Source of the DNA: Candidatus Thorarchaeota archaeon SMTZ1-45
GTDB taxonomy: Archaea > Asgardarchaeota > Thorarchaeia > Thorarchaeales > Thorarchaeaceae
Assembly: GCA_001563335.1 (NCBI GenBank)
Contig: LRSL01000034.1
Coordinates: forward strand, 1 to 22,632
Direction of reading: 5' to 3'
DNA length: 22,632 nucleotides
The position numbers and the translations under genes were made by a program. The notes below the pieces were generated by a model, which worked only from the letters and a program-made list of their open reading frames with translations, had not been told where the DNA came from and ran no database searches. Below, in pieces: positions 10,448 to 13,984 of this stretch; position 1 is the stretch's first letter; every line of letters starts with the position of its first letter.

Positions 10448-10535
10448 GCGGAGGTTGCCAAGCCAGGTCAAAGGCGCCAGGTTGAGGGCCTGGTTCAGTA
10501 GTGATTCGCGAGTTCAAATCTCGCCCTCCGCACCA
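10448..10535 (+). tRNA. tRNA-Leu(GAG); CCA encoded
   Basis: Acceptor GCGGAGG/CCTCCGC, anticodon arm CCAGG-TTGAGGG-CCTGG, long variable arm, T arm GCGAG-TTCAAAT-CTCGC. Confidence 0.96.
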
Positions 10536-10553
10536 TTCTCATTCTAGTTCAAA

Positions 10554-11030
10554 TTACTTCAGAGTCTTTTCGAACCAGATATTGTACCCCCACGGATTTT
10601 TCTTCTTCTTGAAAATTGAATACCCATGCTTCTTGTAGAAGTTCACAGCCCATTCCGCTTCACTGTCCGTTTCCAAGTGAATCTTAGTGAAGTGGAGGTT
10701 TTTCGCCTTCATTTCAAGGAAGCTCATTAAGGAAGAACCAATTCCTTTCCTTTGATGTTTTGAATGAACATGCATCAGTGGAATCCATGCTGTGTCTTCA
10801 TCTCTGGTTCCTAAAGAACCAACGGCAATGATTTTGTCCTTCCTTCTGTGGATAAAGAACTCCATGATAGTTGCCATCTCATCGAGCTGTTTTCGAGTTA
10901 GAAAGGGCTCTCGATAGTACTCTTTCGGGATAATCTTGCTGAACCATTCGCGATTAATTGTATTGATGAGTTTGAGAATCTCTTCCAAATCAGAATCTTC
11001 AGCGCTTTCAAACTTGATCGATATTTTCAA
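10554..11030 (-). CDS. GNAT family N-acetyltransferase (cassette 1)
   Basis: VHSKHQRKGIGSSLM motif A, AVNFYKKHGY motif B; TTG start and GGAGG SD lie inside repeat copy 1. Confidence 0.92.
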   Translation of the reverse strand: MKISIKFESAEDSDLEEILKLINTINREWFSKIIPKEYYREPFLTRKQLDEMATIMEFFIHRRKDKIIAVGSLGTRDEDTAWIPLMHVHSKHQRKGIGSSLMSFLEMKAKNLHFTKIHLETDSEAEWAVNFYKKHGYSIFKKKKNPWGYNIWFEKTLK

Positions 11031-11065
11031 ATCTCGCCCTCCGTACCATTCTCATTCTAGTTCAA
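11026..11065 (+). repeat. tRNA-Leu 3'-end direct repeat, copy 1 (att-like)
   Basis: 39/40 identical to 10513-10552 (TTCAAATCTCGCCCTCCGYACCATTCTCATTCTAGTTCAA). Confidence 0.95.
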
Positions 11066-11510: not shown

Positions 11511-11536
11511 ATAATCACAAACGTTTTACTCCCATA

Positions 11537-11558
11537 TCAAATCTCGCCCTTCGGACCA
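11537..11558 (+). repeat. tRNA-Leu 3'-end direct repeat, copy 2
   Basis: TCAAATCTCGCCCTTCGGACCA, 20/22 identical to 10514-10535. Confidence 0.88.
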
Positions 11559-11645
11559 TTATCCTTTCTCTTCTATTCACCTATCAGGGTTCTAGCAGCA
11601 AAGCAATACTAGCATAGATAATGGTGCTAAACATTGCATAATCAG

Positions 11646-12461
11646 TCAATCTTTGAAATAAACCATCTGAATACTGGACGCCAGTAGATCCCCTTCATCA
11701 CTCCATAGCTCAGCAACCTGATCAAAATAACCACGGTGGAAACGTTGGCCCCGAGCAAAAGCCAAAATCGGGCGATTTGCCTGACGCTCAAGGCTAGAGT
11801 AATCAGCATGAAAATGAGTTGTGATGGATACTGTACTTGCCACTCCTAGTTGCTGGCGCCGAATAAAGACACGAGGGAAAAAAACGTCGCTTATTGCCGC
11901 TAGAGAGAGAAAATCAAGCATCCGTTCCGGCGTGTCACGCACCCAGAGTAAACTCTCTGAGTCTTTCGCTAGCTGGTCTGAGAGAGTCAATTCACCACGT
12001 ATGAATTTGAAGTCGTAGCGGTGAATCCATTGAGGCACAGGTGGAGCCGGCCACGACTCAATTTCTTCAGGTCTCGGTGCATCAGGAGCACGTGCCTCAG
12101 ACATCATCCATGTTTCTTGCCGGATTGCAAGAACCGCAGTGGCTGTTGCAGCTACTTGTGAGCCTTGAGTGAGCTCAGCAATCCAATGTTGGTTCGAACG
12201 GTTTGTACGCATAAGACGAACTGCTAGGTCATATGGAGCATCCGCGATTGGACCAGCAAAGTTCACGGTTAGTGAGATAGGATTTCCCTGACGTTCTTTG
12301 TGACTCAGTATGCCATTCAGAATGACTGCTACAATGATACCACCGAATGGGCCCACCATATTAGCATAGGACTCAGGAATATGCCCTTGGTATGTATAAG
12401 GTGATGTTGGTACAAGTTCGACTGCTTGATTGAAAGGGTGTATTTGACTATTATCGGGCAT
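11646..12461 (-). CDS. Acyl-CoA thioesterase family, double hotdog fold (cassette 3)
   Basis: NMVGPFGG, LAAISDVFFPR, STVSITTHFH, GYFDQVAELWS motifs. Confidence 0.88.
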   Translation of the reverse strand: MPDNSQIHPFNQAVELVPTSPYTYQGHIPESYANMVGPFGGIIVAVILNGILSHKERQGNPISLTVNFAGPIADAPYDLAVRLMRTNRSNQHWIAELTQGSQVAATATAVLAIRQETWMMSEARAPDAPRPEEIESWPAPPVPQWIHRYDFKFIRGELTLSDQLAKDSESLLWVRDTPERMLDFLSLAAISDVFFPRVFIRRQQLGVASTVSITTHFHADYSSLERQANRPILAFARGQRFHRGYFDQVAELWSDEGDLLASSIQMVYFKD

Positions 12462-12564
12462 GGTCCTCTCCGTATCTAATCTATTCGGGTTTCTTATGGA
12501 TGTAATTATAACGCTGATTTAAATGGTCATGCCATAAGATGGACGCGGCAACAACTTGAGAGGC

Positions 12565-12586
12565 TCAAATCTCTCCCTCCCTACCA
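12565..12586 (+). repeat. tRNA-Leu 3'-end direct repeat, copy 3
   Basis: TCAAATCTCTCCCTCCCTACCA, 19/22 identical to 10514-10535. Confidence 0.75.
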
Positions 12587-12651
12587 TCTATTCCTTGTTT
12601 CATCTTGGTCTGCTAATTTATATTTATTAAAAGGAGATAGGGATTGTAACA

Positions 12652-12921
12652 GGACCCACCCAAGATGCGACGAGGCAATTCGCAGTCCTTGAACGGGTGG
12701 GTCCGAGGGAGGGAGTTGTCTTCTGAAGCATAATGGGACTTAGCGCGGCATAGTGATCCAAGATGTGAACTCTCTTTTTGGCTAGTCCCTGAAGGTGTTG
12801 TGAGTCTTGGATTCATACATCAATCCGCGGATTTCAATATAAGGTCGTCATAAGACTAATCGTCGATTTTTCATCCTGAAGATGCAAAAATTCCTGCAAT
12901 TTCAACACAATCTAGGGACTA
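12652..12921 (+). ncRNA. Candidate structured ncRNA of unknown family
   Basis: Three consecutive long stems (12652-12704, 12706-12779, 12783-12921); TTTATTAA at 12623-12630; no credible ORF. Confidence 0.6.
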
Positions 12922-12982
12922 TGGCAATGTATAAAGGTCATGAAGAACGGGAGAGGTCTGAAGCCCTTAAGAGTGGTTAATA

Positions 12983-13984
12983 ATGTCATCTCGAAGAATA
13001 GTAATCATTGGAACTGGGAATATGGGCAGAATACATGCTCGCATTCTTGGTGATCTGGGGGTTCTAGTGGGAGTGGCTGATAAAGATAAGGCCACAGTAG
13101 AACAGGTTGCTAAGGAACATGGCACTACAGCATTTACTGACTTTGAGAGGATGCTTAAAGAAACTGAGCCTGAGGGAGTTATTATTGCCACACCTACTTC
13201 AACTCATGCCAGCATCGCCCAAACCATTGCAACGAACTATAATGGCATCAAGGGAATCTTGATTGAAAAACCTCTGGCAAGTACACTGGAGGATGGAAAG
13301 AAGGTTGCAGAAATAATAAAGAAGCGTAACATTGTCACACTGGTTTCCCACTCTGAGATTTATAATCCAATAGTAAGTAGAGCATTGTTTCTCATTGAAA
13401 CTGATGCGATCGGAACGCCCCAAACAATAATTCATGATAGAAGGGGATTTGTTGCTCCTGCAAGGATTCCATCTCTGGGAGATGTCTTTGAAGACATAGG
13501 TGTCCATGATTTTGATATCATGGCAAGAATCAGCAATGGTCCAGCAAAGCTATATGCGCAAAGTAACACTGTGGGTGGGATTCACAATAGTGGAACTATC
13601 ATGGTGAAGTTTCATTCAGGAACTGAACACTTTTTCCACCTCTCTCGGCAATATGCAGGACGTCGCCGCTACATGGATGTATCAGGCACAATGGGAGTAT
13701 TAGTTCTTGACTTATTTGGCCAAATAATCAAAGTACAGCACCTAGACCAAGCTCCTGAAACGAGAGGCGATACAATACAGCTCCCGGAGAGAGGTGCTAC
13801 GATAAAGGTCTATGGTGAGCCAGTTCGGGAAGCTCTCAATGACTTTCTGAGATGTATCAAGACAGGGGCAACACCAAGAGTAAGCATTGATGATGCTCTA
13901 TGTGCCTTAGAGATTGTTGAGGCTGCAAGAAAAAGTGCAGAGTCAGGAAAAGTGGTTGATATTGAAGTCAGGTCTAGGAAATGA
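12983..13984 (+). CDS. Gfo/Idh/MocA family oxidoreductase
   Basis: IIGTGNMG Rossmann motif, IATPTSTH, IEKPLA, DIGVHDFD. Confidence 0.92.
   Translation: MSSRRIVIIGTGNMGRIHARILGDLGVLVGVADKDKATVEQVAKEHGTTAFTDFERMLKETEPEGVIIATPTSTHASIAQTIATNYNGIKGILIEKPLASTLEDGKKVAEIIKKRNIVTLVSHSEIYNPIVSRALFLIETDAIGTPQTIIHDRRGFVAPARIPSLGDVFEDIGVHDFDIMARISNGPAKLYAQSNTVGGIHNSGTIMVKFHSGTEHFFHLSRQYAGRRRYMDVSGTMGVLVLDLFGQIIKVQHLDQAPETRGDTIQLPERGATIKVYGEPVREALNDFLRCIKTGATPRVSIDDALCALEIVEAARKSAESGKVVDIEVRSRK

Follow-up and report, generated by a model that had tools for sequence, protein, structure and literature searches.

Comparative evidence indicates that a conserved, structured and apparently undescribed family of small RNAs is real in the Thorarchaeaceae. 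The copy described here lies in an intergenic gap of 521 nt (12462-12982) in the window, the whole stretch of 22,632 nt that was analysed, which is contig C34 of a 3.54 Mb assembly that is 87.7% complete. The RNA is probably encoded on the minus strand and most likely runs away from the neighbouring Gfo/Idh/MocA oxidoreductase gene. Its core is a GC-rich terminal hairpin with a C-rich word in its loop and an unpaired C-rich stretch at its 5' side. We infer the ends of the transcript and its mode of action from the pattern of conservation and from the design of other small RNAs.

Genomic setting

The gap is bounded by an acyl-CoA thioesterase gene and the Gfo/Idh/MocA gene (Table 1), after which comes a convergent radical-SAM methylthiotransferase gene. 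The Gfo/Idh/MocA ortholog adjoins the element in all loci that have enough flanking sequence. In every such locus the element lies 260-420 nt away on the upstream side of the ortholog, and the convergent radical-SAM gene comes next. The linkage was found in 24 same-genus loci, 2 further loci and 18 of 20 remote loci; one of the two remaining remote loci is at a contig end and the other is a spurious match. The gene on the opposite side of the element differs between loci, the thioesterase being there in only a few. The Gfo neighbour protein itself is ~60-85% identical across the four genera that carry the element.

A second TATA-like block (GTATAAAGG, CTATAAAGG or CTAATTAGGG) is found ~51 nt ahead of the Gfo start codon and is read as the likely Gfo promoter. 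Within the genus the block CATGGCAATGTATAAAGG is nearly invariant, and in other genera CTATAAAGG or CTAATTAGGG replaces it at the same distance from the Gfo start. Between the element and this block lie 75-105 unconserved bases. One metagenome copy (L078, 272-560) has kept the element and lost the Gfo gene, unrelated sequence beginning just before the CATGGCAATGTATAAAGG block. This break could be a rearrangement or an assembly chimera; its position, just before the Gfo promoter block, fits the element and the Gfo gene being two separate units.

The neighbourhood has some further features. Between the two divergent promoter-like boxes lies an A/T-rich inverted repeat, GATTTTTCATC ... GATGCAAAAATT (12866-12892), and similar TTTTYCA ... 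TGYAAAA repeats occur in many same-genus copies; the inverted repeat may be the operator of a shared regulator. The Gfo/Idh/MocA start at 12983 is ATG here and the same codon is ACG in most same-genus orthologs, in which an in-frame TTG two codons upstream is the likely start. On the other side, a 40-nt sequence is present in four direct copies (10513-10552, 11026-11065, 11536-11575 and 12564-12603) with 63-100% identity. The repeat starts inside the 3' end of a tRNA-Leu gene (10448-10535) and its copies bracket single genes, for a GNAT acetyltransferase, a CxxCxxCC protein and the thioesterase. This array, presumably the "cassette array" of the original prediction, looks like the result of serial integration at the tRNA gene; its last copy stops 26 nt short of the U-run of the RNA. 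Co-transcription of the element with a tRNA was considered and rejected, a word like the tRNA-Leu 3' end occurring within 100 nt of the element in only 5 of the 58 copies. In one locus of genus g22 (L116, 2942-3058, minus strand), a possible intron-containing tRNA gene adjoins the radical-SAM gene: its match to a 71-position tRNA model is 117 nt long.

Table 1. Features of the element and its surroundings (window coordinates).
Feature	Position	Strand	Evidence or remark
Acyl-CoA thioesterase gene	11646-12461	minus	One flank of the gap
TTTATTAA, string of the original prediction	12623-12630	plus reading	Present
U-run UUUU, candidate terminator, ~20 nt past the hairpin	12629-12632	minus	Overlaps TTTATTAA
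Predicted small RNA transcript, ~185 nt	12629-12814	minus	Ends predicted from sequence pattern; block reaches TATA-like box in 58 copies
Terminal hairpin, outer 10-bp stem 12652-12661 / 12695-12704	12652-12704	minus	Covariation
Inner stem of terminal hairpin	12665-12669 / 12680-12684	minus	Covariation
Apical loop, AUUGCCUCGU on minus	12670-12679	minus	GCCUC-type word
Unpaired C-rich stretch ACAACUCCCUCCCUC, immediately 5' of the terminal hairpin	12705-12719	minus	CUCCC, CCUCC or similar word in 57/58 copies
Domain 2 strings, AGGGAGGGAGTT with AACTCTCTTTTT	12706-12717 with 12768-12779	plus reading	Present
Domain 2 strings, GTCTT with AAGAT	12718-12722 with 12760-12764	plus reading	Present
Mid helix GGGACU.AGC / GCUAGUCCC around a variable insert	12735-12744 with 12781-12789	minus	9 pairs, 23 copies
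Domain 3 strings, TAGTCCCT with AGGGACTA	12783-12790 with 12914-12921	plus reading	Present
Domain 3 strings, GTGTTG with CAACAC	12795-12800 with 12903-12908	plus reading	Present
5' block GAAUCCAAGAYUC, possible short 5' hairpin	12802-12814	minus	Conserved in closest group, 23 copies
TATA-like box, CTTATATT on minus (AATATAAG on plus)	12836-12843	minus	CTTATATY, CTTAAATT or TTTATATT in 58/58 copies
Conserved block CAT.A.G.., upstream (BRE) flank of the box	12844-12854	minus	Alignment, 58 copies
Promoter-like block of the Gfo/Idh/MocA gene, CATGGCAATGTATAAAGG, outside the RNA	12921-12939	plus	Nearly invariant in genus
Gfo/Idh/MocA oxidoreductase gene, constant neighbour of the RNA	12983-13984	plus	Pfam PF01408, E 3e-22

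Distribution and conservation

A DNA search of 41 related genomes matched the segment 12644-12982 with 71-81% identity at 14 places in 13 same-genus genomes, and matched a short core (12693-12721) in most of the remaining genomes. To the left of 12644 the sequence is unrelated between genomes. A pattern consisting of the hairpin plus GGGAGG was then scanned over species-representative genomes, giving 28 loci (25 real and 3 high-GC chance matches), and over metagenome contigs, giving 25 loci, 3 of them chance matches. A covariance model of the hairpin domain matched in 45 of 86 genomes of the family: 26/27 in genus g1, 6/7 in g22, 9/17 in g25, 2/7 in g29 and 1/3 in g19. The g19 match sits in coding-like sequence and was discarded as spurious; the model had no match in the remaining 11 genera among these 86 genomes. 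After removal of duplicates there are 58 distinct copies from four genera of the one family.

The element is present as one copy per genome. In the few genomes that gave two matches, either each match lay on a contig with its own Gfo gene or the second was the first hairpin picked up again on the opposite strand. For example, two contigs of genome G010 (C127 and C209, loci L034 and L005) each carry the whole element-Gfo-radical-SAM block; the stated contamination is 7% and the two copies are probably two strains in one bin. In a search of 151 genomes sampled across the phylum, real matches to the hairpin model were confined to this family (f1). Four weak matches outside the family (E 1.4e-4 to 0.0084) were set aside, the two that were inspected having neither the hairpin nor a Gfo gene. 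A high-GC intergenic sequence of the Thermoplasmata, GGACCCAC ... GTGGGTCCGAGGGAGGAGTT (L036, 2001-2085), matches the hairpin model with 17.3 bits (E 7e-4); it has no nearby Gfo gene and no Rfam match and is probably a chance match.

The four genera have in common the hairpin GGACCCRCCC ... GGGYGGGUCC, a GAGGC word in its apical loop (plus reading), GAGGGAGGG(AGUUGUC) or a variant directly beside the hairpin, and an invariant RATATAAGSYC..ATG block. They also share a middle part that varies by group: the closest group has a helix of 7-9 bp around an insert, g22 has short hairpins, and g25 has a long helix whose insert measures ~140 nt. The 5' half thus varies in length and fold, and the total length of the RNA is ~95 nt in one genus, ~175-185 nt here and ~225 nt in another.

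Structure and covariation

The original prediction had described a three-domain RNA on the plus strand. All the strings that it quoted are present where it placed them or within one base. Its first domain holds: the 10-bp stem GGACCCACCC/GGGTGGGTCC is conserved in the 58 copies, with compensatory changes. Over 40 aligned copies 99% of the stem cells are paired, with compensatory changes at 2 pairs; 8 of the 10 pairs show no variation at all in these same-genus copies. When all 58 copies from the four genera are considered, three of the ten pairs are without any change, and none of the other seven is altered in more than 6 copies. Positions 3 and 7 are among those changed, from A-U to G-C, as are positions 8, 9 and 10, from C-G to U-A. 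The GCAA tetraloop proposed for this domain is not closed as such: an inner stem TGCGA/TCGCA closes a 10-nt loop with the conserved GAGGC. Both sides have changed at 7 of 8 pairs of the inner stem (40 aligned copies). The homologues thus showed covariation in both stems; the covariation score is 0.182 vs 0.113 for shuffled alignments of the 40 copies, and 0 of 500 shuffles reach it. With partners slid out of register the score is 0.03-0.09.

The other two domains fared differently. The four helices of domains 2 and 3 have 64.7%, 77.4%, 48.4% and 65.7% of their cells paired in 24 same-genus copies. The 12-bp helix of domain 2 leans on G.U pairs and has no pair changed on both sides, and two of the three same-genus groups lack its partner segment entirely. 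Domain 3 is closed by a helix that extends across what is most likely promoter DNA. Domains 2 and 3 are mostly specific to the window and are not conserved. The sole pairing of the middle region that is conserved, within the closest group, is the one suggested between GGGACT (12735) and AGTCCC (12785). Read on the minus strand in 23 copies, this mid helix contains 6 G.U and 2 A.C cells, and none of its pairs has both bases altered; in other genera, reading by eye, another helix or hairpin takes its place. The plus strand from 12640 to 12930 (291 nt) does not fold more stably than shuffled sequence: its energy is -85.7 kcal/mol (z -0.92), a value matched by 34 of 200 shuffles. The minus-strand fold in the window has a z of -2.45, with 2 of 200 shuffles as good.

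The probable strand of the RNA

The strand of the transcript was assigned from wobble pairs, folding z-scores and the structure conservation index (SCI), which together make it quite likely that the RNA is on the minus strand. In the 10-bp stem all nine non-Watson-Crick cells of the 58 copies are C.A or A.C on the plus strand, with no G.U, and are G.U on the minus strand; at least seven lineages and five stem positions are involved. As read on the plus strand, an 11th stem pair is an A.C mismatch in 23 copies, against 19 copies where it is Watson-Crick. The inner stem read on the plus strand has 32 A.C vs 6 G.U cells, or 14 vs 4 when two pairs with a group-dependent register are left out. Minus-strand alignments gave 11 G.U vs 3 A.C cells in 23 copies and 26 vs 0 in 17 copies, the latter including two extra pairs that exist on the minus strand alone. 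The conserved helices of the two alignments thus have 37 G.U vs 3 A.C cells on the minus strand.

The fold is better on the minus strand in 26 of 29 copies when compared with dinucleotide shuffles (mean z -3.1 vs -1.8), and the structure conservation index is higher on the minus strand in all five groups. When the wobbles of all helices predicted for the one strand or the other were pooled, the count did not favour the minus strand and was ambiguous, with 27 G.U cells on the minus strand vs 39 on the plus strand. Helices predicted on one strand only are biased towards their own strand; pairs predicted on both strands alone gave 13 vs 5 in favour of the minus strand. The original prediction had taken its G-U pairs to indicate the plus strand. 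That argument used pairings specific to the window, and the wobbles of the conserved helices fall on the minus strand. The case shows that G-U arguments from a single sequence can choose the wrong strand.

Predicted transcript boundaries and signals

The TATA-like box, present in every copy, has a conserved flank on its upstream (BRE) side and a variable one on the other. Going down the minus strand, ~18-22 variable bases follow the box and conservation then resumes (58 copies). A variable spacer is expected between a TATA box and a start site. The transcript would therefore start near 12813-12816, where conservation resumes after a gap of the box-to-start kind. The 5' block that follows could form a short hairpin, a weak possibility; its pairing includes A.C on the minus strand in the window and in one other copy.

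The two C-rich words are predicted to be exposed. The C-rich stretch next to the hairpin has a mean unpaired probability of 0.86 vs 0.50 for the whole RNA and is above the average of its RNA in 57 of 58 copies; for the GCCUC-type loop word the mean is 0.91 vs 0.50, and 54 of 56 copies are above average. On the DNA strand opposite the proposed RNA, GGGTGGGTCCGAGGGAGGG (12695-12713, plus) fits a four-tract G-quadruplex motif that is kept in the genus. The idea of a G-quadruplex was dropped, since the fourth tract is absent in genus g25.

On the minus strand, 36 of 58 copies have a T-run of at least 4 no more than 45 nt past the hairpin, vs 17 of 58 when the same windows are taken on the plus strand, which favours the minus strand only modestly; 22 of the 58 copies lack a U-run after the hairpin. 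The SRP RNA and RNase P RNA genes of the same genome have similar-looking ends. A 12-nt BRE+TATA promoter matrix was built from the upstream regions of 28 RNA genes of the genome (26 tRNA genes, RNase P and SRP). On the box its mean score was 1.6 for the minus and 0.7 for the plus strand, near the background mean of 1.7 in both directions. The minus score exceeds the plus score in 41 of 58 copies, and 3 of 58 are above the 95th percentile of the background. The promoter and terminator signals on the minus strand are no more than suggestive. The public sequencing runs that matched the stretch comprised 4 DNA runs and 0 RNA runs.

Relation to known RNA families

The Rfam models (4227 models, Rfam 15, both strands) gave no match in 12300-13200 even at E<=10, and at the gathering threshold the window's two tRNAs were their only matches. 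In 14,538 bases from five homologous loci, an unrelated tRNA was the one match at E<=1. The absence of RNase P, SRP, C/D and H/ACA signatures noted in the original prediction was borne out. Archaeal RNase P RNA (RF00373) has no match in the window and its genome copy is on contig C11 (168.5 bits); archaeal SRP RNA (RF01857) likewise has none, the best genome match, SRP RNA-like, being on contig C24 (85.5 bits). C/D box sRNAs have a C box RUGAUGA near the 5' end and a D box CUGA near the 3' end, joined by a terminal stem. When the 58 copies were read by eye on both strands, UGAUG-like and CUGA-like words were seen in some genera only and in the wrong arrangement. The hairpin of an H/ACA box sRNA contains a two-sided internal pocket, and its lower stem is followed at once on the 3' side by an ACA box; here an ACA lies 4 nt past the stem in one group only, and the internal loop is one-sided, 8-9 vs 1-3 nt.

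The trans-acting sRNAs of Methanosarcina, Haloferax and Sulfolobus are encoded by intergenic genes with their own promoter and an oligo-U end, and some mask ribosome-binding sites. The element would share with them the design of an independent intergenic small RNA gene; we know of no archaeal trans-acting sRNA with this hairpin or this pair of motifs. Among the titles and abstracts found for Thorarchaeota non-coding RNA and for Asgard small RNAs and transcription start sites, none mentions such an RNA. Like a riboswitch or 5' leader, the element is conserved, structured and non-coding, and it accompanies one particular gene, on its upstream side, in every genome. It differs in being most likely on the opposite strand, in having the probable Gfo promoter in between, and in matching no riboswitch family.

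The closest designs are found in bacteria. Unpaired UCCC words of RsaE bind Shine-Dalgarno sites and prevent formation of the initiation complex, according to PMC2790875. RsaE/RoxS and other Firmicutes sRNAs with C-rich boxes have a 5' hairpin, a most conserved part with unpaired C-rich (UCCC) words, and a terminal hairpin, a design like the one proposed here. They belong to another domain of life, give no sequence or model match, and their mechanism is only a prediction for the Thorarchaeaceae element, for which no conserved target was found. The cuckoo RNAs of alpha-proteobacteria (CcsR, RSs0680) are portrayed in PMC4615179 as 2-4 adjacent hairpins with CCUCCUCCC in each loop, stems that vary in sequence, and a genomic neighbourhood preserved in many members. 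Going by that account, the design is similar, both being small RNAs with a hairpin-borne C-rich motif and a preserved neighbourhood. The Thorarchaeaceae RNA has one loop motif, GCCUC[CC], and one linker motif, CUCCCUCCC, rather than 2-4 motif hairpins, its main stem is nearly invariant, and its host is archaeal, not bacterial. Membership in the cuckoo family was rejected on the single hairpin with a linker motif and the absence of an Rfam match.

Proposed function

The overall explanation that we favour, with slightly less than even confidence, is a minus-strand small RNA gene that acts as a base-pairing riboregulator. The single-copy gene would be transcribed from the TATA-like box at 12836-12843, from ~12814 down to 12629, divergently from and away from the Gfo/Idh/MocA gene. 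The 3' core of the RNA would consist of the unpaired ACAACUCCCUCCCUC (core CUCCCUCCC), the GC-rich hairpin with the second C-rich word, GCCUC, in its loop, and a U-rich tail. Through its two exposed CCUCC-like words the RNA would base-pair with mRNAs at their G-rich ribosome-binding sites and so prevent initiation. This mode of action is proposed because unpaired C-rich words, together with G-rich words at gene starts, make up the design of the bacterial C-rich sRNAs; taken by itself it is the most likely of the actions considered, yet still less probable than not.

Many genes of the window have words of the GGAGG, GGAGTG or GGTGA type ahead of them. The CCUCC-like words resemble the anti-Shine-Dalgarno sequence as it is generally known from 16S rRNA; the host's own 16S rRNA 3' end was not found in the assembly. 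A scan of the C-rich stretch against 2555 translation-start regions of the genome gave a mean of -12.3 kcal/mol (sd 3.6) and no conserved target. The upstream region of the Gfo gene scored -22.2 kcal/mol and was rejected as a target, the pairing being mostly upstream of the expected mRNA start and not kept in relatives.

Alternative explanations

The same minus-strand RNA might act mainly as a protein-bound RNA, as a scaffold, a sponge or an RNP component, in which case the stem and the C-rich words would be protein sites. This is possible and somewhat unlikely. The stem sequence is constrained beyond what pairing needs, with 8 of 10 pairs fixed in the 40 same-genus copies, and the scan found no conserved mRNA target. 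The exposed C-rich words, however, suit base-pairing equally well, and the neighbours, an oxidoreductase and a radical-SAM methylthiotransferase, offer no candidate partner. The near-invariance of the stem exceeds the need of a terminator or a seed scaffold and speaks for a protein partner, in addition to mRNA pairing or in its place. That the region encodes a small protein is hardly credible. An ATG-started frame of 67 codons (12816-12613, minus strand) is present in the window, but it has no Pfam match, and close relatives have frameshifting indels, other frames, or no frame of at least 25 codons. No reading frame is common to the copies on either strand.

An RNA on the plus strand would be either an independent ncRNA starting near 12651 or a leader or riboswitch of the Gfo/Idh/MocA gene, exposing GGAGG-like words, and is unlikely. 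In its favour, the element is constantly on the Gfo upstream side, and in the same genome the tRNA-Thr and RNase P RNA genes have boxes similar to TTTATTAA (12623-12630). The single-stranded parts are purine-rich on the plus strand, a G.U-rich helix of GGAGGGAGU with AUUGUCUUU is possible there in the closest group, and a T-run follows the box on the plus strand in 27 of 57 copies. Most copies, however, have TTTCAAAA or nothing TATA-like in place of TTTATTAA. On the minus strand this supposed promoter of the original prediction reads as the U-run after the terminal hairpin. The A.C cells of the two stems and the weaker z-scores also speak against the plus strand. A Gfo leader further conflicts with the gene's own conserved TATA-like box, downstream of the element and separated from it by unconserved bases, and no riboswitch or leader family matched. 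Of the original alternatives, an undescribed structured RNA or a Gfo leader, the former thus stands, as a conserved family, and the latter is disfavoured by that box. It is very unlikely that there is no RNA at all and that the block is double-stranded regulatory DNA of the Gfo gene, its inverted repeat binding a dimeric factor. The block does sit in a promoter region with TATA-like boxes, and the stem arms are nearly invariant. The arms, however, are at least 33 bases apart, the hairpin varies from 38 to 55 nt in length, and at five positions a change in one arm has its counterpart in the other. The inner stem, wholly different between groups, is still paired, and DNA recognition would not give rise to the strand asymmetry of the non-Watson-Crick cells.

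Implications

Asgard archaea are the closest prokaryotic relatives of eukaryotes, and to our knowledge almost nothing is known about their regulatory RNAs. A bolder form of the riboregulator proposal, which we consider quite improbable, is that the RNA is a lineage-specific Asgard riboregulator that mimics the anti-Shine-Dalgarno sequence, with its hairpin held by a dedicated, possibly eukaryote-like, RNA-binding protein, and that it exerts global control of translation initiation in Thorarchaeota. If true, it would be the first lineage-specific riboregulator family of Asgard archaea. The RNA also gives a specific sequence with which to probe metatranscriptomes and the few Asgard relatives in culture. 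It would be a test case for whether the C-rich sRNAs that occlude Shine-Dalgarno sequences, known in bacteria, arose independently in archaea.
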